64,000 nucleotides of DNA, from the IMG/VR virus record IMGVR_UViG_3300033146_004128, positions 123,665 through 187,664 of that record; one strand, 5' to 3'. This DNA is from a virus. Shown here one piece after another: positions 5,272 to 44,781 of the stretch (positions are counted from its first letter, which is position 1; each line of letters starts with the position of its first letter). The position numbers were made by a program, and so were the translations under genes. The notes beneath the pieces are model-generated. The model did not search any database. It was given only the letters and a program-made list of their open reading frames with translations, and was not told where the DNA came from.

Positions 5272-6249
5272 ATGAAACCAGCAGTATCTACTACAGTGAG
5301 TTCAAGCCAGTTCGTTTCAAGACTATTCAGTGACCCTGAATTTGTTAAAGAAGCAGCAGAAGGTATCTCACTTTTTATCCAAGACAAAATTCGTGAAAAA
5401 GGGTTCGCTCGTAAGATCGTTGAGCCTACATACATTTCACCAAAAGACTTAGTGCCAACAGAGCACACTGATCAGCCGGCTATTATGGTTGAGAGAGATG
5501 TCGATGCACGTGCAATGACTGTACCTCTAAGAGGACGTGGTGAGTTCAGATACCATGAGACAGATCGTTATACAGTATATTTCCAAAAAATTGTATCTGA
5601 GAAGATCAGAAAATCAAAAATGGAAATGATGACAGTTAAGACTGACTACAAGAAGTTGTTTAGAGATCGTATCTCAGAAGCAATGTATGAAGTTGAAGAC
5701 TTGACAGTAATGGGCGGAGTAAACAAAGTTCTCGGAGACGAAGAAGTAGCGTTTAAGGCAGCAAATGGTGGAAACCTTTCTACTCAAGGTAACAAATCGT
5801 TCTCAGGTCAAACTGTGTACTTTAACAATGGTGAAACTCTAGACAAGTCTAACCTTGTGTTCTTGTTCCAAATGCCAACTCGTAACCGTATCGCTAACAA
5901 AACTGTCCTCTTGACAGAGACTCTTATCCAAGAGCTTATGCATATGACTATGCAAGAAGTTGGTGATAGTGTTGTATCTAAGTTTTGGGAAGATGGTGTT
6001 GATAACATCTCTGACTTCTGGAACAAGAAGATCGTTACTACGATTAAGTCGCACATTGTTAAAAACAACGAGATCTATACTTTTGCTCCGCAAGATATGT
6101 ATGGACATTTCTTCATCCTACAGGACCACACGTCTTATATGGAAGTTGATCGTGATATGATGACAATGGACAGTGAAGCGTATATCGCACATGCTATTGG
6201 TAACACTAAAGGTGTTTACAAAGGCGTATTCACAGACATCGAAGCATAA
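5272..6249 (+). CDS. major capsid protein, HK97-fold (325 aa)
   Basis: Size, position after scaffold/decoration genes near terL, strong SD aaggag, biased codon use (cgt, gtt, aca); IREKGFARKIV...DQPAIMVERD N-arm/E-loop-like segment. Confidence 0.78.
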   Translation: MKPAVSTTVSSSQFVSRLFSDPEFVKEAAEGISLFIQDKIREKGFARKIVEPTYISPKDLVPTEHTDQPAIMVERDVDARAMTVPLRGRGEFRYHETDRYTVYFQKIVSEKIRKSKMEMMTVKTDYKKLFRDRISEAMYEVEDLTVMGGVNKVLGDEEVAFKAANGGNLSTQGNKSFSGQTVYFNNGETLDKSNLVFLFQMPTRNRIANKTVLLTETLIQELMHMTMQEVGDSVVSKFWEDGVDNISDFWNKKIVTTIKSHIVKNNEIYTFAPQDMYGHFFILQDHTSYMEVDRDMMTMDSEAYIAHAIGNTKGVYKGVFTDIEA

Positions 6250-6725: not shown

Positions 6726-6834
6726 TAAGGGGTTGATATGCTTGACGGAGTCTGCAGAGAAAAGATAGAGAAGATGATATTTGCTCACCTCCTCACAAAG
6801 TATCTTAAACAGTTGCTACGAGAAGGAGGACACC

Positions 6835-7803
6835 ATGTTGGTTGATGCACTAAGCGATATAGATATGGCTGTTCTTAAGAGTAAGATAGAAGAGATAGAT
6901 GGGGCAGCTCACAGACTTGAGAAAGTCGCATCTCTTCCGTTGGATGACAGAAATGATTTAACGAAGGAAGCGTTTGCTTGGCCTGAGGAAAAATTGTTTC
7001 CTATATACTCTCCTGCTCACGCTCTTGTTTCAAGCGTATACCTTGAAGGGAACGATGATGTTCCCGGATTTGTGAAAGAAGCGTGCGAAGAAGCATGTGC
7101 TTTGTTTGGTATGGACGTCCAGATAGGGGCACTTGAGAAAATAGCATCTACACCAGATGAGCTAGAGGCATCGGATTTCCTAATGCCGGCAGCAAGAAAA
7201 TTGCCTGTTGTTGATAAGGATACATTCAGAATGTCTGCAAGCGTACTTGAGAAGGTAGCTTCAGACCTAACTGGTGATGATCTAATCATAGCCAATAGAC
7301 AACTTGTGAAGAAAGCAAGAGACCTTGGAGAGGATGTTTCTGACGAAGCATTGTCACTAGGGTTATATGGAACGATTGATGCCATAGGGGCCAGAAGCAC
7401 GCTTCATGAGCGTACTCTTATTACCGGTGATGAAAGATATGAAAAAGTCGCATCAGACATTAGTGGAGACACAGTGTACTCCGTTGAGAAGGTAGCCTCT
7501 ATAGTTATGGATGTTCTATCCTTAGATGAAGAGCATGGGCTTGACAAAACAGCAAAAGAAGCAATTCTTGAGCTAGTTAACCCAGGAGAAGTTTCAGAAG
7601 TCTTTGAGATTGGAGCAGAGGAAATTCCTGTAGACAAAATAGCATCGATTGATGCTGAGGACTGGGTAGATGTACTGCCTAGGTCTATTGTCGAAGGGAT
7701 GTTTAGTGATGGATATTTAGATACTAGTATCCTGAGAGAGATTACGGACAATGCTAGCCCCGAAGAGAAAGAGGCTATAGCAATGTTTGTTAATAAAATT
7801 TAA
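6835..7803 (+). CDS. acidic K-x-A-motif-rich putative internal head protein (322 aa)
   Basis: Start re-assigned to the ATG after SD aaggagg; LEKVAS x2, LEKIAS, YEKVAS, VEKVAS, VDKIAS, LDKTAK. Confidence 0.7.
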   Translation: MLVDALSDIDMAVLKSKIEEIDGAAHRLEKVASLPLDDRNDLTKEAFAWPEEKLFPIYSPAHALVSSVYLEGNDDVPGFVKEACEEACALFGMDVQIGALEKIASTPDELEASDFLMPAARKLPVVDKDTFRMSASVLEKVASDLTGDDLIIANRQLVKKARDLGEDVSDEALSLGLYGTIDAIGARSTLHERTLITGDERYEKVASDISGDTVYSVEKVASIVMDVLSLDEEHGLDKTAKEAILELVNPGEVSEVFEIGAEEIPVDKIASIDAEDWVDVLPRSIVEGMFSDGYLDTSILREITDNASPEEKEAIAMFVNKI

Positions 7804-13101: not shown

Positions 13102-14538
13102 TTATTGTGTTAATACGACTGATTTTGTCATGCCTAATATAAATGCAAGCTCTATTGCCTGCTCTGCAACTGTCTCCGCTACTATGGTTGGATCCAGAGT
13201 TACAACTGAAGAGTCAGATCCTAGACTACCATTTATAATTTTAGATAGCTCTTCTACCGCTCCATCTATGTTCGATCTGCATCCAGACCCCTGCCCCATA
13301 TTTGTGTATGCATATGATGCACCTGGAACAACTCCACCGCTTAGTGACAACTCAAGAGAGTTTATGCAGTCATCAGCCCTATCCTTTCGCTCCGTAACAG
13401 CATTTACTGTGTTCCCGCCAACTATAACTTTTATAAGCTTTTTCTTGAGTATTGACAATATTGTTTTAAACATATCCCTTTCCTCGTCAGATGAGACAGA
13501 CCTCATTTTACCCATGTAGTAATCAGCAAGTCTATCAACATCGTCTTGATTTGACTTGTCCTCACCGGTTATCGTTATCGACTTTCTCTTTACTGATATT
13601 CTTGAGATTTTAGTCATCATCTCAGGTGTAACATCACATATGTCTATTCCGCTAGACTCTCCAACAACTGTTCCATTTATGGCGGTAGAGATTGCCTCTA
13701 TGGCAAGTGATGTGTTTATGGCACTACCACCATCTATGGCAATAGGCAAAAGATTTATTGACACACCGTGATTTATCGATAGAGCTGACAGTGATGTCAT
13801 CGCAAACTGAGGTGCAATAATGACTAGATTCTCAACTCCTGCATTCACACAGGTGGTAATCAGTTCAACAATGTCATCCTCACCACTAACCTCAGATGTA
13901 GACAGTATCACATGCGCATCTTTCAAATCAGAAGTCCTGCTATCTTTATTGTCATAAAAAATTAAGTCTATGATATTACCAGTGAAGTTTATACCGTCAA
14001 CAACATCAACTTTTGTAACACCTCTAACCTGTGGGTCTGCTATAACACCAGATATTCCACTCTCATCTGCTATTTTGAATGCAGATACTATCGCCTCTGC
14101 CAATATCTTATCACCGGCAGTTGAGGTCATTGCTACAGTCATTGCTTCAGGAGAGTCTACGGTTATATCCCTACTGTTTTTCCTTATGTTGTTCTTAACT
14201 GTATCTATGATGTGATCTTTGTGCATGAAGTCTGCACTGTTGAAATTAGCAAGTATCTTATTGGCCAGGACAACTGTGGTGGTGGTTCCGTCCCCTGCCT
14301 TAGATAGTGTGTTCAGAGAAGCTTCTTGTATCACACTTATGATTGCCTGCTCTAGAGGCTCCGTAGATACAAGAGCCCTAATAACAGACACTCCATCTTT
14401 TGTTGCAAGAGACGTGTCTCCGTTGGATAGCACCACAAATCCACCGTTTGGACCATACGTAGACTCAACAAGAGACGACACCTGTTCCATAACATTTCTC
14501 ACAAAATCAGTTGAATTTGGACCGGTTGACTTTATCAT
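13102..14538 (-). CDS. groEL: phage-encoded GroEL-like chaperonin (478 aa, divergent, no GGM tail)
   Basis: STYGPNG, TKDGVSV, AGDGTTT nucleotide-binding motif, KDRADD...GVVPG (D398-equivalent retained). Confidence 0.92.
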   Translation of the reverse strand: MIKSTGPNSTDFVRNVMEQVSSLVESTYGPNGGFVVLSNGDTSLATKDGVSVIRALVSTEPLEQAIISVIQEASLNTLSKAGDGTTTTVVLANKILANFNSADFMHKDHIIDTVKNNIRKNSRDITVDSPEAMTVAMTSTAGDKILAEAIVSAFKIADESGISGVIADPQVRGVTKVDVVDGINFTGNIIDLIFYDNKDSRTSDLKDAHVILSTSEVSGEDDIVELITTCVNAGVENLVIIAPQFAMTSLSALSINHGVSINLLPIAIDGGSAINTSLAIEAISTAINGTVVGESSGIDICDVTPEMMTKISRISVKRKSITITGEDKSNQDDVDRLADYYMGKMRSVSSDEERDMFKTILSILKKKLIKVIVGGNTVNAVTERKDRADDCINSLELSLSGGVVPGASYAYTNMGQGSGCRSNIDGAVEELSKIINGSLGSDSSVVTLDPTIVAETVAEQAIELAFILGMTKSVVLTQ

Positions 14539-14789
14539 TTTAATACCCTCGCAATAATGTCATCTGTAGTTATGACTATGTAGTCTTTATTCTCGTATTC
14601 AAGCTCCGTACCTGCATATCTTGCAATAAGAAACTTGTCTCCTTCCTTTACCCCATCTACTCCACAACTAAGTATCTCCACAGTCAATGGCTTTTCCTTG
14701 TTGCTAGATGTTTTTACAACGCCGGCAGAGTTCTTATTGTCAACTCCTATCCTGCGAGCAATTATATTGTCTCCGAAAGATTTTATCAT
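14535..14789 (-). CDS. groES: GroES-like co-chaperonin (84 aa)
   Basis: MIKSFGDNIIARR, mobile-loop-like KNSAGVVKT, VKEGDKFLIARYAGTELEYENKDYIVITTDDIIA; start after SD caggag; ATGA overlap with groEL. Confidence 0.9.
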   Translation of the reverse strand: MIKSFGDNIIARRIGVDNKNSAGVVKTSSNKEKPLTVEILSCGVDGVKEGDKFLIARYAGTELEYENKDYIVITTDDIIARVLK

Positions 14790-14869
14790 TATATCTCCTG
14801 ATATTGTAGTATCAGTAGTATACCCTAGCAAAATTAGATAATACCTTAATCGTATATATATTATGTGCC

Positions 14870-17800
14870 TTACGTCTTCTTTATATCGGGACCAGGTTTA
14901 TTTAAAGCATCTCTCACTGCTTCAGTTGCCACGGCAATTCTCTCAAGAATTGACTGCGTATTGTCCTTTGACACACCCTTCTCTGTTCTACTTCGACTCA
15001 TGACGCTTGTGTCCTTAGTTATCTTATTCATGGTTCTGTTTATATGAAAGTCTTCGCCGACAGGTGGAGTCACATTGAAGTCTGCGCTAGCCAGATGTTT
15101 TGGAATCCTTGCCTTGTCCGGACCATCAAGCGCCTTGCTGTCCACTCCTTTTTTGTTTTTTTCAGAAGTCTCAATGTCAGCATCTGGAGAGCCACCATCT
15201 CGTGGAGGAAGCCCAAAAGCAGCCCTGTAGTCTGCCTTTGCCTTTGTGCCATCTGGGTAATACCCCTCTGCATTCGCAAAAGCCTTAGTTCTTCCAGTCA
15301 CTACTCCGAACCCATCATCCTTAGGCTCAGGCAACCCAAACGCTTCCCTATAGTTTCCCATTGCCTTTGTGCCATCTGGGTAATACCCCTCTGCATTCGC
15401 AAAAGCCTTAATTCTCCCAATCTCAACCCCAAAATGATCACCTTTTTCTTTACTCATTTGTCCAGGACTTATAAATCTAGCTTGAGACTCAGCTGACCCT
15501 ATAACCTCTTTGTCCCCAGTATTTATTTCATAATTATCATTAGGATGATCCTTTATCCACTCTTTACTATCTATGGAGGGACCCATACTTGCCCTGAGGG
15601 CTTTTTTTGCCAAAGTCCTGATATCTTTATTATGTTCTACTTCAGTGTTCGATACATTTTTGTGTCCAGAACTACCTTCTCCTGACCCTATCCCATAACT
15701 ATCAACTTCACTTCTTTTTGATTTTGATCTTCTTTGAATATACTTAGGTGTAAATTTCTCCCCTTTATATATTACTCTATCCTTGCTCTCGTATTTAGTC
15801 CCTCTAGGCTTAGCATTCTTCTTCGCAACATCAAGCTTATCGCTAGCAACTTTCATTTCTGCAGCCAATTCTGCAGTTCTTTTAGCATCTTCAGCTTTCC
15901 GTGCGCCAATACTAGTTCCAGACTCATCTATATCATTCTTGTCACCAAGCATGGCCATCTTCAGCTTTCGTACATCCTTTCCTTTTCCATATCCTCCAGC
16001 TGTGTACGCATCTTTTTCCTCAGAATATCCACCATCTTTTTTATCATTATAGAACGATATCGACAATCTATCTTTTTTCGCTGTTACTTTGACTCCTCCT
16101 GCATATTGCCCTTGCAAATCTCTCTGTATAGACTCACCAAATTTCTTTGCCTCTTTAGCATCCTTGAACTGAGCAATGGACATATCAAAGGCTTTGCCCT
16201 TTTTGTGTCTCTCCTCATTTTGCTCAGATCCTCCAGTGAGTAGCAGTGTCTTTCCTTTTTTGGAAAGAGCATTTTTAGTTCTCAATAGCATATCGCTAGT
16301 GTCATCTTTTAATCCATCTAGACTAGTTCCTCCAAATGTAAGAACTGCACCCTTTCTAACACCTCCTACTTTACTCATATCCCTTCTTCCTGAAGGCATA
16401 GGGACATTATCTTTTGGGTCAGCCATGCCCATATTTTTTGGAGGCTTGGCTTGATGGTCAACGGATGTGTTTTTTACTGTCTGGGTTGGCTTTGATGCAG
16501 GAGTTGGTCTATCTTTATCATTATTCATGGTAGCCCATTCATTCTTCTTGCTATTGCCTACATGATCAACCTCAACCTTCTTTCCTTTAGTGGTATGCCT
16601 GTCAGAAGTTTTTATTGCGTCCTTCTTATCAGTATCGCTAGCTACAGGTTCTGCTACTGGAGTCTTTTTGACTGTTGCCCTCTTTGGCGGCACAACTGGC
16701 TCATCAGAAGCATCCCTAGATACAGGAGTCATAGTTTTAGCAGAATCTTCTTTTATCTTCTGAGATAAGCTGTATACTTTATTCACAGATGCAGTAAAGT
16801 CAGTTTCGGCTATGCTTTTTGTGCTTGATCCCTTCCCCTTATCTGTATTCCTGACCAAATCTGCCATTTTTGAATTTATTTGATTCAATATGTTTTCTAT
16901 AGGGTTCTGCCCCTTATTTACAGACCTGTCCTCTATTGTTTTTGCTGTTATGCCAGATGATCCTCTGTCTGCGAATGACTGAGTAAGCAATTCTTCTCCA
17001 GTAACCCCTGCCTCCTTCTTCTTGTCCCCACCTGTTATATTCTCCATGGCCCTAGACAGAACTCTTTCAGTCATGGTCATGTCTTCATATTTCTTTTCTC
17101 CAATAGCATCATACTTTTTACGTATCTCTGCGCCAGACATTCTTGTCATCTTACCTTTTTCCCCAACGTGAAATAGTCCAGCAACACCCATTGCACTAGC
17201 CTGTTTCTCTGAAGAAAGCAGGTTCTCACCGAATAGATGCCTATTTCTTGCATTTTCCAAGCCTATTGTCACTGCTCCTATAGTACTATTTTTGAAATCT
17301 TTCTCTGAAATATCTCCAAGTGCTTTTATTCCTGATAGACTGTCTACCATTTTCTTCTGTTCGGTTGAAAGTTTTTCATACTCATCTTGAGTATCGTTCA
17401 GTATCCCTTGGTCTGCAAGCTTAGAATTACTCTTACCATGTATATTCTTTGCTCTCTTCTTGGCAAGAGAGAATATTTTTGTTCTGTCTTCTTCTCCAAG
17501 CTGTGTCCATTTTACAGCAGCAACAGATGCGTCACCATCCTTAAGTATATCTGCTGCTATATTTCCTTTTGTACCCTTCATGCTGTCTAGATACAGAGAA
17601 CTTATATAGTCGGAGTCCATCGCATCACCTACAGCAAGATTGTCTGCATTTTTTGTAATAGTTCTACCAACAGCCTTAGACGTATCTTGGGCTTCCTGGT
17701 CATCCATATGAAGTGATCTCATAAGATTCTTATATGTAGGCTTTTCGTATGTCTTTGTCATATCTATACCAAGAGTCTCTACTTCTTGCTTTGTTGCATT

Positions 17801-20611
17801 TCCGTTATACCCTATGTTAAATGCAGCTGCGGCAGCTCTTATATCAACACCTGCATGCTTTAATGACTCGGCCTTGATGTGCGCCGCTTCAAAACTATCA
17901 ACGGCTCCTTTGTGTGTACCCTTCCCATACAGTAGGGCATCCGAAAGGAATCCTTTTGCCTGAGATCCAAGTTTTGACAATTTAGGGTCGGAAGCTATAA
18001 ATTTCTCTATTCCCTCTTTTTCACCATACTTAGAAGTACTTTCTTGCAATTTTCCATAGTCAATATCTTTTTCGGCATCTGCAGCTGATATGATAGCCTT
18101 CTGTGCTTTTGTTGCTGATTTTACCATTGTTGTCGTGTCTCGTATCACGTCCTCGCTTTTTGCATTTATTTTATCTCCCATTCCCCAAAAATCATAGAAC
18201 TTATTCGCCATACCATCATGCTCTCCTCTTTCTGCGCTGGCAGCTTGATACATGGAGAATACTGCTGCCTCTCGTGTTGGTTTGAACTTCTTATTGTTTA
18301 GCGTTGCTCCTGCATCCTTGAAGTCATTATCCTTTAGTGTAGAGAAGAATAGGTCCATGTTTGACACAACCTCATCATTTCCAGCCTGTATCTTTTCTGA
18401 GAATGTTTCAAAGTCAATCTTGCCAGATCTGTAGTCCGCAAACGCATTTGTGTTTTTTGTCCTGGCATTACTCTCTGCTCTTTGCATATCGTTTGAGGAC
18501 TTAGCCATAGCCGCAACCTCTTTATGATCAACAGTCGCAAAGCCAAACGCCCCGACAGCTTCCGTTAGCGCATCCCATCCAACTGCTTCAAATGCACCAA
18601 GCATTCCTTTCCCTATATCCTGTCTGTTTATTCCTGCACGTGTGCCTAGACTCTGGAGATTCTTTCTCTCGTCCTCATACTGAGTACTTAGCCCAGGTAG
18701 ATAGTTCGTGAACGATGCCTCTCTGTTTCCAGTGCCAAGCATATCTTTGTACCCATCATCACTAGCAGAATCCATTTTAGCATTTACTTTTGCGAACTCA
18801 AGGCTATTGCCTGCTATTCCGGTAGCTGCCTTTTTCCCAGCCTCTGTAACGGTTCCTACACTTACTCCATTGGATGTTAGCTTCTTTACATCCTGTAGAA
18901 GACCCTCTATAAAACCTCCAAACACTTTTCTTACTGCGGTAAGTCCTGATTCCCACTGCTTCTCAAATGATCCTGAGTCAATAGCTGCACTACGCTGCTC
19001 TAGTTTTTTTGCCTTCTCGACAGATTTCATGACACTTTCATACCCACCGTTGCCTGCTGCACTAAATATAGCCCTTGTCTTACTTGACAAAGTCATTCCT
19101 GAAGCACGGACAAGGTTTCTATCTTGTGTCACTTTAGCCATATAGCCAATTTGTGTCTTTACTGCATCCCATGAGCCAGAATCGTGAAGTGCCCTAGAGT
19201 ACCCCTCTGTCATCTTTTTCATTGCTGCAGGATCCTGCATTAGTATAGAAGCAGTTTCTGTTGTTGTAAGAGCACCGTTCTTGGAGTACGTATCTAATAG
19301 TTCTCCTAGGGTAAATTCCCCATTCTTGTGCCCTTTTTTTACTTTTTCAAATGATTTTTGTATTAGTGAGTCCTGATCTTCACTACTCATTTTCTCGAAC
19401 GCTTTTCTTCCTCCTGCTGACGTGTATGCCTCCCCTATAGCAAGAGCACCATACACATTCTCACTAGCAGCCATATTCTTACTGAATGCAAGTTGAGCCG
19501 TAGGACCAGATGCGAACGTATTATACGCCTTGTTTGCCTGGTCGATAGCTTGTATCTGCTCTTCGTTGTTACCTAGTTTTTTCTGAAGTTCAGGGTCAAG
19601 TTTTATCATATCCATCATTGTTGATTTAGACATAACAGCATCAGCCTTAGATAGCACATTTATTGGATCGTTCGCTTCAGCTTCCTGAAGAAGGTTCCCC
19701 ATTAGATTGCTGGCATCCATTCCGTACTTTCTTGCTGCACTGCCTACTGACCTTGACGCTTCCACAGCAGCTCCGTTTGACAGACCTGTTCCATTTAGTC
19801 TTCGAAGTGTATCCATTATCTCTGAGATGTCAGATCCTCCAAATATCTCAACAAGAGATTTTGCTACGCCTTTAAGGTCTTTTATCTTAGATGTTATGTC
19901 TCCGGTTCCTTGTGCTCCTGATATGTTTCCGGTCTTAATTCCCTCATCCATTATTCGTGTAATCTCCCCCACGCTGAAATATGGATCCTCCGTTGCGGAC
20001 TCTTCCATAGATGAGTACACCTTCTTGCTGTCTGATATACTATATCCGAAGTCAGCACCATATGGACTATCAGTATTTGCAAGCCCCATAAGGCTTCTAT
20101 GTGTCTCAAGTTGCCTACCAGCCCTTTGAGAATACATTTCTCCTAAGCTTCCGCCTATGCCTCCTCCGGCCATACTACCCACCATACTACCAACGAGAGC
20201 ACCAATACCAGGAATAGGTATCATCGCCTGCCCAATCATTGCTCCAAGGGCAGACCCAGCAAATCCTCCGCCTATCTCCATTCCTGTTGATGCCATTGCG
20301 GCAGTAGACCCCTCTCTAAGGTTTGCCATATGGGCTTGGAATGTTGCTCCGTGTGCTCCTGCTGGTTTTGATAGTAGGTTTGTTCTTCCCATCATGAATG
20401 AAGATGTAAAAGGGTTGTCATACATTGGAGAATAAGGAGATGACCACGTACTAGACTGTCCACCCCCATACATATTCTGCATGTTGAAGTTGCTGGATGG
20501 ATTCATGTACCCCTGTGGTCCACCAGACATCATGCCTGGATTAGCAGTAAATCCCTGCCAAGGGCTCATGTGCATATAGCCATTACTTTGTTGCATGTAC
20601 GGATCTAGCAT
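14870..20611 (-). CDS. tape-measure-like protein (1913 aa) with low-complexity C-terminal extension
   Basis: Very long A/K/G/S-rich helical ORF in the tail operon, Gly-rich hydrophobic segment near the N-terminus (GGFAGSALGAMIG...GALVGSMVG), adjacent to baseplate and chaperone genes. Confidence 0.72.
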   Translation of the reverse strand: MLDPYMQQSNGYMHMSPWQGFTANPGMMSGGPQGYMNPSSNFNMQNMYGGGQSSTWSSPYSPMYDNPFTSSFMMGRTNLLSKPAGAHGATFQAHMANLREGSTAAMASTGMEIGGGFAGSALGAMIGQAMIPIPGIGALVGSMVGSMAGGGIGGSLGEMYSQRAGRQLETHRSLMGLANTDSPYGADFGYSISDSKKVYSSMEESATEDPYFSVGEITRIMDEGIKTGNISGAQGTGDITSKIKDLKGVAKSLVEIFGGSDISEIMDTLRRLNGTGLSNGAAVEASRSVGSAARKYGMDASNLMGNLLQEAEANDPINVLSKADAVMSKSTMMDMIKLDPELQKKLGNNEEQIQAIDQANKAYNTFASGPTAQLAFSKNMAASENVYGALAIGEAYTSAGGRKAFEKMSSEDQDSLIQKSFEKVKKGHKNGEFTLGELLDTYSKNGALTTTETASILMQDPAAMKKMTEGYSRALHDSGSWDAVKTQIGYMAKVTQDRNLVRASGMTLSSKTRAIFSAAGNGGYESVMKSVEKAKKLEQRSAAIDSGSFEKQWESGLTAVRKVFGGFIEGLLQDVKKLTSNGVSVGTVTEAGKKAATGIAGNSLEFAKVNAKMDSASDDGYKDMLGTGNREASFTNYLPGLSTQYEDERKNLQSLGTRAGINRQDIGKGMLGAFEAVGWDALTEAVGAFGFATVDHKEVAAMAKSSNDMQRAESNARTKNTNAFADYRSGKIDFETFSEKIQAGNDEVVSNMDLFFSTLKDNDFKDAGATLNNKKFKPTREAAVFSMYQAASAERGEHDGMANKFYDFWGMGDKINAKSEDVIRDTTTMVKSATKAQKAIISAADAEKDIDYGKLQESTSKYGEKEGIEKFIASDPKLSKLGSQAKGFLSDALLYGKGTHKGAVDSFEAAHIKAESLKHAGVDIRAAAAAFNIGYNGNATKQEVETLGIDMTKTYEKPTYKNLMRSLHMDDQEAQDTSKAVGRTITKNADNLAVGDAMDSDYISSLYLDSMKGTKGNIAADILKDGDASVAAVKWTQLGEEDRTKIFSLAKKRAKNIHGKSNSKLADQGILNDTQDEYEKLSTEQKKMVDSLSGIKALGDISEKDFKNSTIGAVTIGLENARNRHLFGENLLSSEKQASAMGVAGLFHVGEKGKMTRMSGAEIRKKYDAIGEKKYEDMTMTERVLSRAMENITGGDKKKEAGVTGEELLTQSFADRGSSGITAKTIEDRSVNKGQNPIENILNQINSKMADLVRNTDKGKGSSTKSIAETDFTASVNKVYSLSQKIKEDSAKTMTPVSRDASDEPVVPPKRATVKKTPVAEPVASDTDKKDAIKTSDRHTTKGKKVEVDHVGNSKKNEWATMNNDKDRPTPASKPTQTVKNTSVDHQAKPPKNMGMADPKDNVPMPSGRRDMSKVGGVRKGAVLTFGGTSLDGLKDDTSDMLLRTKNALSKKGKTLLLTGGSEQNEERHKKGKAFDMSIAQFKDAKEAKKFGESIQRDLQGQYAGGVKVTAKKDRLSISFYNDKKDGGYSEEKDAYTAGGYGKGKDVRKLKMAMLGDKNDIDESGTSIGARKAEDAKRTAELAAEMKVASDKLDVAKKNAKPRGTKYESKDRVIYKGEKFTPKYIQRRSKSKRSEVDSYGIGSGEGSSGHKNVSNTEVEHNKDIRTLAKKALRASMGPSIDSKEWIKDHPNDNYEINTGDKEVIGSAESQARFISPGQMSKEKGDHFGVEIGRIKAFANAEGYYPDGTKAMGNYREAFGLPEPKDDGFGVVTGRTKAFANAEGYYPDGTKAKADYRAAFGLPPRDGGSPDADIETSEKNKKGVDSKALDGPDKARIPKHLASADFNVTPPVGEDFHINRTMNKITKDTSVMSRSRTEKGVSKDNTQSILERIAVATEAVRDALNKPGPDIKKT
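15238..15410. repeat. two perfect 50-bp direct repeats (15238-15287 and 15361-15410), 123 bp apart
   Basis: ttgcctttgtgccatctgggtaatacccctctgcattcgcaaaagcctta twice; encodes KAFANAEGYYPDGTKA. Confidence 0.95.
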
Positions 20612-22605: not shown

Positions 22606-23778
22606 CTATGGGCGTAATGTCATGTTTTGATATTTGTTCATTGCAGGACCTACTTCAAGTGCCGTTGCTCCAGCTACTCCAAGAGTACCAACAGCACCTA
22701 ATGTAGACCCACCATTTACGAAGCCTTTTGCTCCACCGCTTACAATATTCAAAGGGTTTCCAGTTAGAGCCCCTTTTATACTTCCTGAGGCTGCACCAAA
22801 TACTCTTCCCGGTAATTTTGCTGTCCCCATTATAACACTAGAACCCTTATTCCATCCATGGGCTGCACCAGATAATGGATTTTTTCCTGTAAGTAAGCTC
22901 TTTGTTCCTTGTATTGCGGCACCACCTATTTTTCCGGGAAGCTTGGTGGCCTTATACCCAAGCTTCCCTAGTTTAAAACCCGTCCTTGCAATCCCTCCGA
23001 GGAGGCTAGTTAGAAATGCTATCTTTTCAAGGTCGTCATATGATGATGCTTCTTTAACAAGAGTCTTTGCTTCCTGGATGTCTCCCAGGGTAACAATTAT
23101 TCGTTCTGCTGCTTCTGTACGTATAGCGTCCATGTCGACAGATGCTACCTTTAGCAGGGTTGTCTCTGCATCATTTGAGACAGCTACCATCTCAGGTATT
23201 ATACTTCCCATCCCATTGTCTATAACCATTCCGATTATTGATCTAAGCTCGGATGCGTCATTTGCTATCTTTGTGAGATCTTCTATCTCTGCACCAAACA
23301 TATCATTGAGCATGGCAATAGCTCTAACCTTATCGGTCTTGAACGACTCCTCTTCTCTGTCTGCTTTCTTGTCAAGCTCTGAGTCTATGATATGCTCTGC
23401 AACTTTTCTAAATGTAGATTCTGATCCACCATTTGATGATCTGGCACTTATCGGTCTGTGAGCTCCTATTACGAACATCGAATCATCTACCATTGCTATC
23501 TTGTCTATAGTCTTTGTATTATCAGATGCTGTCTTCTCTACAGTTGGGTCTTCTACCGACCTAGTCACATGAGAGTCTTTTATCTCTGGCTCAAGAACAT
23601 TAAAGTCGATATTTCCGTCAGTATCTCTTCCTTCTAGCCTACTTAAAAAGAATTGCTTATTGACTTCCCTAGCGAGTGTCGTCTTGTGCACATCATCTAA
23701 AGAGGATGCTTCCTTGGCAAACTCCCCATACGGATCCTCCGCTGATGCTATCTGAATAGCTAGTGTTTTATAGTCCAT
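22606..23778 (-). CDS. K-x-A-rich putative internal head protein: acidic N-region plus basic Gly-rich C-module (390 aa)
   Basis: Start re-assigned to MDYK after SD aaggaa; FAKEAS, VEKTAS, IDKIAM, FRKVAE, LTKIAN, LLKVAS, LVKEAS, LEKIAF, then a G/K-rich tail. Confidence 0.7.
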   Translation of the reverse strand: MDYKTLAIQIASAEDPYGEFAKEASSLDDVHKTTLAREVNKQFFLSRLEGRDTDGNIDFNVLEPEIKDSHVTRSVEDPTVEKTASDNTKTIDKIAMVDDSMFVIGAHRPISARSSNGGSESTFRKVAEHIIDSELDKKADREEESFKTDKVRAIAMLNDMFGAEIEDLTKIANDASELRSIIGMVIDNGMGSIIPEMVAVSNDAETTLLKVASVDMDAIRTEAAERIIVTLGDIQEAKTLVKEASSYDDLEKIAFLTSLLGGIARTGFKLGKLGYKATKLPGKIGGAAIQGTKSLLTGKNPLSGAAHGWNKGSSVIMGTAKLPGRVFGAASGSIKGALTGNPLNIVSGGAKGFVNGGSTLGAVGTLGVAGATALEVGPAMNKYQNMTLRP

Positions 23779-23837
23779 TTTATATTCCTTGTTTTTTATG
23801 GCCCTCAGTCCTCCCATCCAAGATGAGAGGGTCAGGG

Positions 23838-24098
23838 TCAATAGTCCTTAGGGACCAATGGCTCTGATTCGTCCATTTTTTGCTTGCCGATATAAGCACC
23901 ACCAGCACCTACGGCTGCAGTACCTCTAACGAAAGCTCGTTGGTCTTTAGCAGCTTTTACGCTCTTCTTACCAACCTTTATATCATTTGCATTTCCCGAC
24001 TTCTTGGCAGCTTTGAGTGCCTTCTTTGCCTTCTTCACATTTTTACCTGTGAAAGACTTTGTAGCAAATCCAAGAATGCTAGCTTCTTTGTTTAACAT
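23838..24098 (-). CDS. small basic K-x-A protein (86 aa)
   Basis: MLNKEAS then a Lys/Ala-rich helix and GTAAVGAGGAYIG; SD aaggag. Confidence 0.7.
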   Translation of the reverse strand: MLNKEASILGFATKSFTGKNVKKAKKALKAAKKSGNANDIKVGKKSVKAAKDQRAFVRGTAAVGAGGAYIGKQKMDESEPLVPKDY

Positions 24099-24122: not shown

Positions 24123-25577
24123 TTACCCTCTACCTTGGAATGAAGCCATCCCGGCTGCACCAGCGCCAGCAAGACCAAGTCCACCTGCAACTGTTGCTGC
24201 TCTAGATACATTTCTGCTCTTCTTGGCAGACTGTAGTTTGCCCTTAGCTTTGCTTACAGCTTTCTTCTTACCGAAGATTTTCTTAGATGCTTTTGCAACA
24301 CCTTTTTCTGCTTCAGCTACGCCTTTTCCGCTAACGTTCTTAGCATATGTCTTAGCTCCAGACTTTACTGCTTCTTTTGCTTTACCGAATGCTTTTTTTG
24401 CCGTATCTATCTTTCCTGCTTCTTTCTCTACTTCCAACATTAGGTCTGTAAGAGATGCACCCTCGATATCTGAAAGATACTCAAACGCTTCAGCAATTTT
24501 GTCAATAGACTCTTCGTCAAGACCATCAAACTCAGATGCAACTTTATCTTGTGCTTCCTCATCTTCGGCAGATGCAAAGTTCTCAGCAAATTCGATTGCA
24601 TTAACTGCATCCAATCCTGCTTCATCTAGGAAGTCATATGCTTCCGCAACTTTGTCCCATACTTCGTCTGTAGCAGATACTTCTTCTGAAGCCTGTTTAT
24701 TAAGAGCTGCTGCTGTTCCGCCTACTGCTAGTGTACCACCGGCAATACCTGCTCCAATACGAGCATTCTTTGTATCTTTCTTAGCTTGTGCTACTGCTTC
24801 AAGTTTCTTCTTTTTACCAAAGAACCCTTTTTTAGCATTTGCTTCTGCTGCGCTTAGGTTTTTACCGGTAACATCTCCATACAATTTTTTAACTGCACCT
24901 TTTGCTTTTCCGAAACCTTCTCCGACAGCTTTCTTTGCAGCTTCCATCTTGCCTGCTTCTTTGTCAAACTCTGCCATAAGGCTTGTTAATGACTGACCTT
25001 CAATATCAGAAAGGTATTCAAAGGCTTCAGCAATCTTATCGATTGACTCTTCATCAAGTCCGTCAAAGTCAGATGCTACTTTATCTTGAGCATCTTCGTC
25101 TTCTGCGCTTGAGTACTCTTCTGCAAACTCCATAGATGTAACAGGATCTAAACCAGACTCACTAAGGTACTCGTGTGCTTCTGCAACTTTTTCCCATACT
25201 TCGTCTGTAGCAGATATGCCCATTGCTTCTTCAGCTTCTTCAGCTTGCTTGTCAAGTAGTCCAGAGATGATCTGTAGATCAAGTTCTTCAAGTCCAGCCT
25301 CTTTCACCATTTCAAGTGCATCCGCTTCTGTGAAGTCTTCTTCTCCGTAGTATCTCTCATATGCAGATACTGCCTCCAGGAAAGCACTAGGCTCCTGATC
25401 TTCAGCTACCTTGATAAGATTTTCCTGAGTATAAACATTTCCATATACGAGGTTATGCATAACTCTAGCGTCATTTTCCGATACTCCATCTGCCTCAGCC
25501 ATCTTAATTAGGCCATCTACGTTGTCGCTACCTTCGATTACACCGAGATAGTTGATTGTTAGTTCTGATAATGTCAT
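24123..25577 (-). CDS. polyprotein-like K-x-A protein with a 179-aa internal duplication (484 aa)
   Basis: Acidic spacer / cationic module repeated twice; 13 K-x-A motifs in or flanking the acidic spacers; SD aaggaa. Confidence 0.8.
   Translation of the reverse strand: MTLSELTINYLGVIEGSDNVDGLIKMAEADGVSENDARVMHNLVYGNVYTQENLIKVAEDQEPSAFLEAVSAYERYYGEEDFTEADALEMVKEAGLEELDLQIISGLLDKQAEEAEEAMGISATDEVWEKVAEAHEYLSESGLDPVTSMEFAEEYSSAEDEDAQDKVASDFDGLDEESIDKIAEAFEYLSDIEGQSLTSLMAEFDKEAGKMEAAKKAVGEGFGKAKGAVKKLYGDVTGKNLSAAEANAKKGFFGKKKKLEAVAQAKKDTKNARIGAGIAGGTLAVGGTAAALNKQASEEVSATDEVWDKVAEAYDFLDEAGLDAVNAIEFAENFASAEDEEAQDKVASEFDGLDEESIDKIAEAFEYLSDIEGASLTDLMLEVEKEAGKIDTAKKAFGKAKEAVKSGAKTYAKNVSGKGVAEAEKGVAKASKKIFGKKKAVSKAKGKLQSAKKSRNVSRAATVAGGLGLAGAGAAGMASFQGRG
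24416..25214 (-). repeat. internal tandem duplication, period 537 bp (179 aa)
   Basis: cccatacttcgtctgtagcagata present twice, 537 bp apart; SATDEVW(E/D)KVAEA...QDKVAS(D/E)FDGLDEESIDKIAEAFEYLSDIEG repeated. Confidence 0.9.
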
Positions 25578-37672: not shown

Positions 37673-38148
37673 TATCCTTCTCCAAGATTATACTTAGATG
37701 AAAGATAGTTTTTGTATGCTGACGATCTTCCTGTCTTTTTACCTGACAGCAACTCCCTGGAAGCTTGCTGTCTATTATACTCACTTTTTTGTTTCTTCGC
37801 AGACATTACCCCGGCAACTCCTGCTGCAGCCAATCCGAGAACACCATTCTTTCTTCCTGAAGTTAGAGATTTGAACCTCTTGCTATCTTTTAGATTTAGT
37901 GTTCTACCAACAAGATATGAAAGTGAACCGCCTGTAGCGGCATCCTTCACTGTCTCTTCCTTGTTGTGTGGTGATCTTCGTGTCTTCTTTGCTTCAGATA
38001 TAGCCTCCATCTTCGCAAGACTCATATCTGACGATGCTACCTTTTCTCCAGTGCTAGTGTCAAAAGATGAGAAGTCATCAGTAAATAGGGGCTTATTCTT
38101 CTTCTTCTTGTATTGCTTTTTTACTGGGAGTGGTTTTTTTTCGATCAT
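37672..38148 (-). CDS. basic K-x-A protein with Gly/Ala hydrophobic segment (158 aa)
   Basis: GEKVAS; GVLGLAAAGVAGVMSA. Confidence 0.65.
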   Translation of the reverse strand: MIEKKPLPVKKQYKKKKNKPLFTDDFSSFDTSTGEKVASSDMSLAKMEAISEAKKTRRSPHNKEETVKDAATGGSLSYLVGRTLNLKDSKRFKSLTSGRKNGVLGLAAAGVAGVMSAKKQKSEYNRQQASRELLSGKKTGRSSAYKNYLSSKYNLGEG

Positions 38149-38732
38149 ACAGATACTCCCCCTGCTAACCCAGAAGACTGACCACTGATTGCATCATATA
38201 AAGTATTGTAGTTTCCGCCACCTCTATGTTGTATATCACCAACAGTCTTTGCGGTGTTAAGGTCTACACCACCAACAGCATGAGCGGTGTTAAGGAATGT
38301 AGATGCAAGCATTGGATCTTTTGCAACACGTGGAGATACTGCATATGCACTATTAAGCCACATTTTTAATTTTCCATTACTTACATTTGACAAGGCAGGA
38401 TTTTCTCTCTTCGCAAATGCTATGATTCCATTCCTGTGCTTATTGAAAAGATTTTTATTATGTTTTTTTTCCATATCTTTTGCTATTCCACCTGCTAGTG
38501 CAACGCCAAGACCAACTACTGCAGTTTGTCCTAGTCCACTAATAAGTCTATCTGAAAAACCAGCAGTTTTTTCGATTTCTTCATCATCAGTAGTTTTGGC
38601 TAGATCTTTTTGTATGTTTCTTAGAAGGTATACTGCTTGTGCTGTCTTCTCTAGCAATATCTCATTATCCTCAAGAAAGCCCTCTTCTTCCACGGAAGCG
38701 GCGGTCTTTTCTAATTCTTGTTTTGTAATCAT
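38145..38732 (-). CDS. K-x-A protein: acidic pro-region plus membrane-type module (195 aa)
   Basis: LEKTAA, LEKTAQ, IEKTAG then FSDRLISGLGQTAVVGLGVALAGGIA; SD aggag. Confidence 0.7.
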   Translation of the reverse strand: MITKQELEKTAASVEEEGFLEDNEILLEKTAQAVYLLRNIQKDLAKTTDDEEIEKTAGFSDRLISGLGQTAVVGLGVALAGGIAKDMEKKHNKNLFNKHRNGIIAFAKRENPALSNVSNGKLKMWLNSAYAVSPRVAKDPMLASTFLNTAHAVGGVDLNTAKTVGDIQHRGGGNYNTLYDAISGQSSGLAGGVSV

Positions 38733-43482: not shown

Positions 43483-44781
43483 TTAATTCCCCCCTCTATA
43501 AACAACGGCTTCATCACCGTTTGCTCTAACTCCTGTTATATTGTGCGCAAATCCATTATCGACAAGTTCAACATAATACTCAGGAATGTCTTTAGATAAG
43601 CTAAAGCCTCTTCTTGACAGTGTTACGCTTTTACCATCATTGAAATTCACTTTATATTGAGCGTAGTCCTGCTTTCCAAATGCTCTCCTGGCAACCTCTC
43701 CTGGCTTAGCAGCTCTTGAGTCACCATATAGATCCCTTTTGATACCGTCACTACTTAATGCTTTTGCAAACATATTTCTAGCTGCTATCTTCTCAATGAA
43801 CTCATTTGTGTAGTCAAGAGATGTAGCAAACTTAATCATCGAGCATGGTGGGTTAGCCTCGGCCTTCTCGATTAACATTCTAGCAAATATCTCATTATCG
43901 CAATTTTTTGCACAGTCAGCATACTCTTCTTTTGGCATATCCGACCCTATAAACAAGGCCTCTGAAGGTTTTAGTACAAGTCTTTTTGAATGTACAATCT
44001 TAATGATCGCTTCAGGACTCATTCCTCTTCTGAACTTATCCATCTCGTCAACGCTTACGGATGATGGGAGGGTATCTATGGCATCTATATACTTAACCAG
44101 TGTTGCAACTTTTTCATCTATGCTGTATGACTCATCCGATGCAACTTTCTGAAACAATGCATGTCCTTGAGCGTCTGCCGGCTTCCGGACTACTGATATA
44201 TCAAAGAAGTTCATTGGTGGTATATTTATTGCGTATACAACTTGACCATTTGGCTTCTGTCTATGCATCTCGAATTTGAGATGATCACATCTGTTTGCAA
44301 GCGACCCCTTAGTAATTGACCCACAATATGAGCACATTTCCTGAGGAACCTTTACTCCCATAGATACTTTTATCCTTGACCCACTTTCTATGTCAGAATA
44401 TATATCTGGAGCCTTGCTCTTCTTTATCTCAAGTAAAAGCTCTACTCTATGCATATCATCATTGTATATTGCTTTCACAACATTACCTATAGATTTTGAC
44501 GGATCCTTATTGAAATGCTGTATAAATATACCTGCAGACTCAAATGTCTTATAAAACTCTTTCAGGTCTTTTTCATAAAAGAAATCACCATTATTGTTTT
44601 CACCATAATAATCACCTGCACCCATAGCTATAACATGTAGGTATGCATTGTTCTTTTTCTGATCTATTTTATCAAGAAGATTCTCTCCTGCTGTTTTTAT
44701 CATAGGGCAAGATCCACCAAAGCACGAGCTGTGCTCAATTTCCATCTGGTCTACGGTAAAGTCAATTATCTTAGTTAGCAT
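43483..44781 (-). CDS. prohead maturation protease (HK97/herpes assemblin fold) with Zn-finger insert and K-x-A sites (432 aa)
   Basis: His in FIQHFNKD, Ser in KVSMG, CSYC...CDH insert, FFDISVVRKPAD; flanked by MIKTAG, FQKVAS, DEKVAT, MIKFAT, IEKIAA. Confidence 0.82.
   Translation of the reverse strand: MLTKIIDFTVDQMEIEHSSCFGGSCPMIKTAGENLLDKIDQKKNNAYLHVIAMGAGDYYGENNNGDFFYEKDLKEFYKTFESAGIFIQHFNKDPSKSIGNVVKAIYNDDMHRVELLLEIKKSKAPDIYSDIESGSRIKVSMGVKVPQEMCSYCGSITKGSLANRCDHLKFEMHRQKPNGQVVYAINIPPMNFFDISVVRKPADAQGHALFQKVASDESYSIDEKVATLVKYIDAIDTLPSSVSVDEMDKFRRGMSPEAIIKIVHSKRLVLKPSEALFIGSDMPKEEYADCAKNCDNEIFARMLIEKAEANPPCSMIKFATSLDYTNEFIEKIAARNMFAKALSSDGIKRDLYGDSRAAKPGEVARRAFGKQDYAQYKVNFNDGKSVTLSRRGFSLSKDIPEYYVELVDNGFAHNITGVRANGDEAVVYRGGN

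Follow-up and report, generated by a model that had tools for sequence, protein, structure and literature searches.

A Lys-x-Ala-punctuated tandem polyprotein as a probable precursor of basic internal head proteins in an uncultured phage

Processed internal head proteins with cleavable propeptides are of a kind already known in tailed phages. The ejection proteins of phage SPN3US carry propeptides of 111-254 amino acids (aa) that are cut several times, and the protease responsible trims its own C-terminus (PMC5694885, PMC10052503). In T4 the core proteins are diced and the internal proteins lose their leaders (PMC5694885). The assemblins of herpesviruses cut after Ala, at sites such as YLQA-T and VQA-S (PMC4498786). 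Here, we report a 484-aa protein, encoded on the minus strand at 24123..25577 of a window of 64,000 nucleotides (IMG/VR record IMGVR_UViG_3300033146_004128, positions 123,665 to 187,664), in which acidic regions alternate with two cationic modules and Lys-x-Ala (K-x-A) motifs mark the boundaries. The window is the final 64 kb of the 187,664-bp contig of an uncultured phage. We consider it probable that this protein is a precursor of internal head (prohead-core) proteins, which the phage's own protease would cut and which would release two basic DNA-associated peptides.

A preliminary description of this DNA had placed a gene at 24123-25577. The open reading frame (ORF) exists, with its stop codon at 24123-25, but the strand has to be corrected to minus, the plus-strand frame over the same interval being riddled with stops. 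Residues 1-118 (25224..25577; this and the following coordinates are on the minus strand) form an N-terminal acidic domain that AlphaFold2 (AF2) models as helices with a predicted local distance difference test score (pLDDT) of 78-93, and that has K-x-A sites at K25, K56, K92 and K110. It is followed by a first copy of an acidic repeat (residues 119-208, 24954..25223; sites K130, K166, K181 and K206), by cationic module 1 (residues 209-296, 24690..24953), by a second copy of the acidic repeat (residues 297-387, 24417..24689; sites K309, K345, K360 and K385; pLDDT 85-95) and by cationic module 2 (residues 388-484, 24126..24416). Both modules stand out by composition and are recognized by a hidden Markov model (HMM) built from 39 cationic modules, which places domains at residues 209-296 (independent E-value, i-E, 1.7e-18) and 388-477 (i-E 2.3e-17). 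Module 1 ends in IGAGIAGGTLAVGGTAAAL and then LNKQA, module 2 in AATVAGGLGLAGAGAAGMA and then SFQGRG. The hydrophobic Gly/Ala segments of these ends are residues 274-292 (24702..24758; pLDDT <50) and residues 460-478 (24144..24200).

The charge alternates along the chain. Residues 1-208 contain 57 D/E against 10 K/R (net -47) and residues 297-387 have a net charge of -27, whereas module 1 holds 18 K and 1 R against 6 D/E (net +13) and module 2 holds 21 K and 3 R against 4 D/E (net +20). The junction strings DKEA208|G209, LNKQA296 and EKEA387|G388 are all present in the protein. At the DNA level a direct repeat of 300 nt (24347-24646 and 24884-25183, 69% identity), which is evidence for the second acidic copy, recurs at a spacing of 537 nt, equal to 179 aa. 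The residue counts, junctions and Gly/Ala-rich ends given in the preliminary description all agree with the recomputed composition, and the 179-aa duplication it had noticed corresponds to this repeat.

The K-x-A motif behaves in this protein as a processing signal would. Every Lys of the acidic regions stands in it (12/12; with an Ala fraction of 0.13, p ~2e-11), and none of 200,000 shuffles reached 12 of 12, the maximum being 8. Homologues were found in metagenomes, 24 of them at 36-66% identity and 43 by an exhaustive profile search. Across the alignment of the 24, 20 columns are invariant, nine of which are the K or A residues of K-x-A sites (K25/A27, K130/A132, A168, K181/A183 and K206/A208); K110-Q-A112 is nearly invariant as well. 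The sites fit a fuller motif, hydrophobic-x-K-x-A, whose logo reads L/F/I/V at P5, E/D at P4, K at P3, V/T/I/E at P2, A at P1 and, in falling order, S, E and G at P1'. Eleven such sites occur in the protein against 2.3 expected, and genome-wide the pattern [DE]K[VILTM]A[SETG] is seen 23 times against 3.3 expected (z = 11.8). The proteins rich in the motif are few, namely the precursor itself, proteins of 340, 411, 123, 195 and 802 aa, and the head protease. Within the precursor, nine of the 11 fuller sites lie in the acidic domains, which also hold two KVAS sites without a hydrophobic P5 residue, and the remaining two close the cationic modules. A scan of the precursor for hydrophobic-x-K-x-A found none inside either module. 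It had been proposed from the letters that K-x-A sites bound the modules, and conservation, shuffles and the fuller motif agree in making these sites look like a genuine processing code. The accompanying caution, that the modules contain incidental matches, is correct insofar as K-x-A triplets do occur there, but it is answered because these triplets have no hydrophobic residue two positions ahead of the Lys (P5) and so are not the fuller motif.

The junctions themselves bear on which bond would be cut. They read D/E-K-E-A-G/S and N-K-Q-A-S, with only K and A invariant, and a conserved x-x-Glu motif, as in the rule of T4, phiKZ and SPN3US, was not found at the domain junctions of the protein and its homologues. 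A T4-like cut after Glu (K-E|A) was considered and is less likely, because P2 varies (E, Q, V, I, T or M) while the Ala is invariant; such a cut would put Q, V or T at P1 in several homologues.

The presumed processing enzyme is the head maturation protease encoded at 43483..44781 on the minus strand (phrog_18299, E = 6.5e-13). Its AF2 model has the assemblin fold. VIA-align gave Z = 10.5 to T4 gp21 (5jbl; root-mean-square deviation 2.4 Å over 127 residues), Z = 10.5 to the varicella-zoster virus protease (1vzv) and Z = 9.8 to the pseudorabies virus protease, the deviations for 5jbl and 1vzv being 2.4-2.6 Å over 113-127 residues, and Foldseek matched the model to 5jbl with a probability of 0.99. 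A profile of the protease searched against PDB sequences with HMMER gave no match, and the fold search was needed for the assignment. Two K-x-A sites, K29-x-A31 and K212-V-A214, flank the catalytic domain of this enzyme and do not vary among 31 homologues, the most distant of which has 26% identity; nor do the likely catalytic residues that accompany them. In the model these sites lie in low-confidence linkers (residues 1-32 and 203-219; pLDDT <50) around a confident domain. They point to a herpes-like cut after Ala and not after Glu, and the head protease is most likely the enzyme that would cut the precursor at its K-x-A tags. Given the shared assemblin fold and the Ala-directed cuts of the herpesvirus enzymes, it is plausible that a phage protease of this type follows an Ala-then-Ser rule, which would be new if real. 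Other observations on the enzyme are that each flanking site is followed by S, G or A, and that an invariant cluster of C150, C153, C165 and H167 is present, possibly a zinc site.

The motif is found also in the major capsid protein (5272..6249, plus strand), which is 31% identical to the capsid protein gp226 of Salmonella phage Arash and carries FVK26-E-A28 near its N-terminus. K26, E27 and A28 are invariant among the window phage, Vibrio phage D181 and Arash. The K-x-A motif is in this way placed at what would be the classical maturation positions, the N-terminus of the capsid protein and the flanks of the protease domain. The nearest named relatives of the phage are the Vibrio phages D181, D148 and D69 and the "orphan" Salmonella myovirus Arash, with 31-43% identity in the capsid and protease proteins. 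Beside the protease and capsid genes of Arash and D181 lie equally motif-rich genes (gp220, gp223 and gp225; D181_0275, 0278 and 0280), and this richness is, at the level of sequence, an independent replicate of the pattern. Between the protease and capsid genes both phages encode in addition a small basic Gly/Ala-rich protein, gp224 in Arash (+21) and D181_0279 in the Vibrio phage (+21, starting MFKSA|S). In virion preparations of Arash, where the evidence is coverage per protein, gp220-gp225 were reported, including gp224. These proteins are analogues of the precursor, and no homology to it was detectable; by analogy, gp224 and D181_0279 lend indirect support to a location of the precursor in the head. 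BLASTP of the precursor against gp224, and of the 411-aa protein against gp220, gave motif-level matches only, and the profile of the precursor family had no match in the whole Arash and D181 genomes. The idea that an acidic gene and a basic gene are fused here is unproven, hhalign giving a probability of 6% for the family against gp223 and D181_0278.

If cut at the fuller motif, the precursor is predicted to fall into acidic fragments of 15-51 aa and two large products, no more, that stay uncut (residues 209-296 and 388-484), and each of the two modules begins directly after a hydrophobic-x-K-x-A site. The module is found elsewhere too. An 86-aa stand-alone paralogue lies at 23838..24098 (minus strand), starts with MLNKEA|S and matches the module HMM with E = 3.2e-5, the search having covered a few thousand ORFs made up of the 238 proteins of the genome and the six-frame ORFs of three loci. 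Two metagenomic polyproteins, P0168 (695 aa, E = 5.6e-15) and P0174 (678 aa, E = 3.9e-10), match it with at least three significant copies and up to six partial matches per precursor; their significant copies start directly after L-E-K-E/T-A, and their acidic part is reduced to linkers of about 12 residues. In a scan of viral contigs P0168 had no match. Among the 24 proteins of the close family, eight have two modules and 16 have one. The comparison of repeat number that the preliminary description had proposed accordingly finds the module alone, once, twice or at least three times per precursor. Judged by sequence, the cationic module is a real homologous unit delimited by K-x-A sites. The module HMM did not detect gp224, D181_0279 or a group of basic proteins encoded elsewhere in the genome (64556-66893). 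Copy number also differs between two metagenomic proteins: P0009 lacks exactly one of the 175-aa repeat units of P0003, the flanks being 100% identical, which reflects either recent unequal recombination, and hence a natural change in copy number, or an assembly collapse. Within P0003 the two cationic modules hardly differ, in contrast to those of the protein studied here.

In the scheme that we favour, the precursor would be built into the prohead, where the assemblin-fold protease (43483-44781) would cut it at hydrophobic-x-K-x-A, probably after the Ala. Since the acidic domains hold nine of the 11 fuller sites, they would be diced into the 15-51-aa pieces, and two uncut cationic products would be freed, G209-A296 (88 aa, +13) and G388-G484 (97 aa, +20). 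The acidic domains would serve, as in SPN3US, as lengthy propeptides that bring the protein into the prohead core and are cut at several points. The basic products would accompany the packaged DNA as its counter-ions and exit together with it on infection, and their Gly/Ala-rich tails may serve in self-association or in contact with the host membrane.

Several observations weigh against this scheme. Most K-x-A sites of the acidic domains lie within confident AF2 helices and are less accessible there than in linkers, and, unusually for a propeptide that is to be discarded, the acidic domain is the best-conserved part of the protein. The gene lies outside the head-gene block, just upstream of the genes for a 1913-aa protein and groES/groEL. 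The acidic motif-rich Arash protein gp223 was itself reported in virion preparations, so that acidic parts are not necessarily lost; as the Arash particle list includes obvious non-structural enzymes besides gp223, it cannot show loss of the acidic parts. Homology of the precursor to gp223 or gp224 is unsupported, by hhalign as given above and by the lack of an HMM match. The known T4-type phage proteases all cut after Glu and not after Ala (PMC5694885). Finally, the counterpart of the 86-aa gene in a related contig (L003:11470-11718) starts with MSTYSFARD and has no N-terminal L-N-K-E-A leader, so that this paralogue does not always carry a cleavable leader, unless the start codon was miscalled.

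The acidic parts deserve separate consideration. They had been regarded as spacers that neutralise the modules during synthesis, a view that the data do not bear out: pLDDT is 85-95 for the acidic domains, 50-88 for the cationic modules and <50 for the Gly/Ala ends; the two acidic copies are 74% identical to each other against 50% for the modules, and among homologues the acidic part keeps 58% identity against 24%; and acidic charges of -47 and -27 go far beyond what modules of +13 and +20 would need. To judge from the models, the acidic parts are folded, conserved domains and not mere spacers. This conservation and confident fold would also suit a different view, in which function resides in the acidic helical domains, with the basic tails as accessories for loading or as a DNA tether. 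The acidic product would then be a scaffold or core component like the acidic repeat proteins of Arash and D181, or a packaged, DNA-mimicking anti-defence effector. Its unit of about 27 aa resembles the repeats of gp223 and D181_0278, whose genes stand in the place of a scaffold gene, between those of protease and capsid, and gp223 was detected in virion preparations. Yet the profile comparison with these two proteins is the non-significant one cited above (6%), Foldseek against BFVD and PDB found no structural match to a scaffold or DNA-mimic protein, and invariant Lys residues that stand only in K-x-A, in a domain that is otherwise acidic, fit recognition sites better than a stable effector. 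P0168 and P0174, moreover, keep the modules and shrink the acidic part to short linkers. We regard a functional acidic product as quite unlikely.

The Gly/Ala-rich ends raise the question of membrane activity. Their 19-aa Kyte-Doolittle means are 1.46 and 1.32, and rough position-independent insertion sums are +3.5 and +4.3 kcal/mol, where transmembrane segments usually have a mean of at least 1.6 and a negative insertion energy. Neither segment reaches classical transmembrane or tail-anchor hydrophobicity, and the ends, described at first as membrane-peptide-like, fall short of that measure. The helical hydrophobic moments of the modules reach maxima of 0.47 and 0.57, close to magainin (0.51) and melittin (0.55), but 19% and 8% of composition-matched shuffles attain them (p = 0.19 and 0.08), so an amphipathicity of the antimicrobial-peptide type does not clearly exceed what composition gives. 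The analogy drawn earlier with multi-copy antimicrobial-peptide precursors of animals is borne out in layout and fails in that the acidic parts are folded and conserved and the amphipathicity is not clearly above composition. A polytopic membrane protein was rejected on charge topology and weak hydrophobicity. What is kept across homologues is the order of elements, a basic stretch, 18-22 Gly/Ala-rich residues, a Tyr or Phe and a short polar tail, while the sequence drifts; this conserved layout suggests a glycine-zipper or fusion-peptide-like element and not a classical transmembrane helix.

Such an element would be in keeping with cationic modules that are membrane-active ejection peptides, expelled ahead of or with the DNA, in which DNA binding is secondary. 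Their glycine-zipper tails would enter the host inner membrane and form or prime a channel for the DNA and a virion RNA polymerase. In support, the basic residues, the 18-22-aa stretch, the aromatic residue and the polar tail are kept in all homologues, and the 411-aa and 86-aa neighbours have a similar segment, as does the 1913-aa protein at its N-terminus. The tail composition is like that of viral fusion peptides and glycine-zipper channel formers, and RNA polymerase subunits, which would need delivery, were reported in Arash virion preparations. The low hydrophobicity, the unfavourable insertion sums and the moments that a share of the shuffles equal all count against it, as does the lack of any holin, glycine-zipper or ejection-protein match in Pfam and PHROGs, and an ejectosome is not known to be needed by such phages. 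A primary role in ejection seems to us unlikely, though less so than a functional acidic product.

The Gly/Ala segments could, alternatively, anchor the acidic domain to the host inner membrane while proheads or tails are assembled, the K-E-A cut then freeing the particle and the modules remaining in the membrane without ever entering the virion. The layout, a basic stretch before a hydrophobic end, is like that of a tail anchor, and the gene adjoins tail-module-like and chaperonin genes. Proheads of T4 and SPN3US assemble on the inner membrane, and their release probably depends on the action of the protease (PMC10052503). In the two-module form, however, a stretch of +20 would lie outside, contrary to the positive-inside rule as far as composition tells, the segments are too weakly hydrophobic for insertion by the translocon, and the analogous gp224 was reported in Arash virion preparations. 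A membrane-anchored assembly factor is highly improbable.

Apart from the precursor, the window encodes several proteins in which the motif accumulates. A 340-aa acidic protein (6781..7803, plus strand), two genes after the capsid gene, has six E/D-K-V/I-A-S sites; 12 of its 19 Lys stand in K-x-A (p = 2.6e-8), and it has ten fuller-motif sites against 0.73 expected. It is likely a scaffold or core protein that would be diced at maturation, and a candidate substrate of the protease. The 411-aa protein (22606..23841, minus strand) is laid out like the precursor, with an acidic region of nine sites followed, after LEKIA|F, by a basic Gly-rich tail; its nine hydrophobic-x-K-x-A sites compare with 1.06 expected. 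Motif-rich proteins of 123 aa and 195 aa are also encoded in the window, and elsewhere in the genome one of 802 aa near a portal-like gene. The 195-aa protein (38145-38732, minus strand) has three E-K-T-A sites followed by a hydrophobic Gly-rich stretch and is laid out like Arash gp221 and D181_0276 (L002:6147-6698; L001:5770-6309), which there lie just upstream of the protease gene; the three may represent one small head protein conserved among these phages. The 802-aa protein and the portal-like gene are immediately preceded by three adjacent plus-strand genes (genome 64556-66893), whose basic Gly/Ala-rich products of 358, 101 and 321 aa (net +41, +19 and +38) are punctuated by K-x-A and have a layout like that of the modules.

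Downstream of the precursor gene lies a 1913-aa protein (14870-20611, minus strand) whose N-terminal region is rich in Gly zippers and which has, towards its C-terminus, two repeats of about 50 aa. It has no Pfam or PHROG match and no significant BLASTP match to Arash gp4; its N-terminal 300 residues show only a weak collinear resemblance. Directly downstream of it (13102-14831, minus strand) are a phage GroES (Cpn10, E = 5.5e-11) and a shortened GroEL-like gene (phrog_5725, E = 6.5e-57), and the same pair follows the giant gene in locus L004. In the two viral contigs L003 and L004 the conserved gene order is a 280-aa gene, the precursor, a small basic gene, genes of about 350, 416 and about 250 aa, the giant protein and groES; the small basic gene is missing from L004, where groEL was also seen, and an 84-aa ORF occupies the groES position in L003. 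The window further encodes the rear half of a bacterial-type RNA polymerase beta-prime subunit.

Database searches placed the precursor in no described family. Megablast and tblastn against 50,697 phage records gave no match. Against Pfam nothing reached the gathering score and PHROG matches had E >=1e-3, and searching the modules separately and eight neighbouring proteins against Pfam and PHROGs gave nothing meaningful. Foldseek searches of the AF2 model against BFVD and PDB found no match at E <=1e-3, only weak helical look-alikes among tape-measure and sigma proteins (E >=0.1), and the best score in the ESM Atlas was 0.77.

A literature search found no paper describing the Lys-x-Ala rule, the tandem layout or the cationic glycine-zipper products, and these three features, as read from sequence, appear to be what is new here. 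They allow a broader proposal for the clade of large marine and enteric phages that comprises this phage, the Vibrio D181 group, Arash and many metagenomic contigs. Tentatively, and with doubts that are only slightly smaller than those about a primary role in ejection, this clade may have retuned a T4-type protease to hydrophobic-x-Lys-x-Ala-then-Ser, and its polyproteins of one to about six modules may give the capsid cationic glycine-zipper peptides, a new class of cargo that would both pack DNA and open the host membrane. If this is true, an Ala-cutting, herpesvirus-like lineage would bear on how specificity evolved in the assembly machinery shared by phages and herpesviruses. The hydrophobic-x-K-x-A rule would also be a simple means of predicting the mature virion proteins of a clade that is poorly known but has a cultured Salmonella phage among its members, and the system would offer a tractable case for the loading of internal proteins, the handling of DNA charge and the injection of cargo. 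For a polyprotein that brings a number of small basic peptides into the capsid, no counterpart has been described in tailed phages.

Among the known systems, the closest are the ejection proteins gp53 and gp54 of SPN3US and gp93 of phiKZ, processed by the proteases gp245 and gp175, respectively. As is proposed for the precursor, these have long N-terminal propeptides with several copies of a motif that yield small pieces; they are head-internal proteins, as the precursor is presumed to be, they belong to paralogous families, and the protease trims itself. They differ in that their motif is A/S/G-x-Glu, cut after Glu, where the motif here is hydrophobic-x-K-x-A, and in that each of their precursors gives one large mature protein, where two small basic products would arise here from a tandemly duplicated precursor. 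No sequence or fold similarity was found between the precursor and the SPN3US and phiKZ ejection proteins. The T4 prohead core, in which the internal proteins IPI-III and Alt bear leaders that target them to the capsid and gp21 dices gp22, gp67 and gp68, shares the fold of the protease (Z = 10.5 to 5jbl); its basic internal proteins are packaged and injected with the DNA, its acidic core proteins are cut to small peptides, and its short cleavable leaders resemble the MLNKEA of the 86-aa paralogue. T4 nevertheless cuts at L/I-x-Glu, with leaders of 10-20 aa and one product per gene, its internal proteins have no Gly/Ala hydrophobic tails, and the genes are not homologous.

Outside the tailed phages, the herpesvirus assemblins resemble the system described here in fold, in sites that flank the protease domain and in an Ala that is usually followed by Ser, which matches the putative P1 Ala and P1' Ser. 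Their sites have no fixed Lys at P3, the specificity proposed here being read from sequence, and their substrates are the scaffold and the protease only, not polyproteins of cationic cargo. In adenoviruses a capsid-resident protease frees small basic DNA-condensing peptides and a membrane-active peptide from pVII, pX (mu) and pVI; that enzyme is an unrelated cysteine protease of an unrelated virus lineage, and the precursors are not tandem polyproteins. The antimicrobial-peptide precursors of animals share with the 484-aa protein the alternation of acidic pro-pieces and cationic peptides and a variable copy number, whereas their processing enzyme and cellular setting are unrelated to those of the phage.

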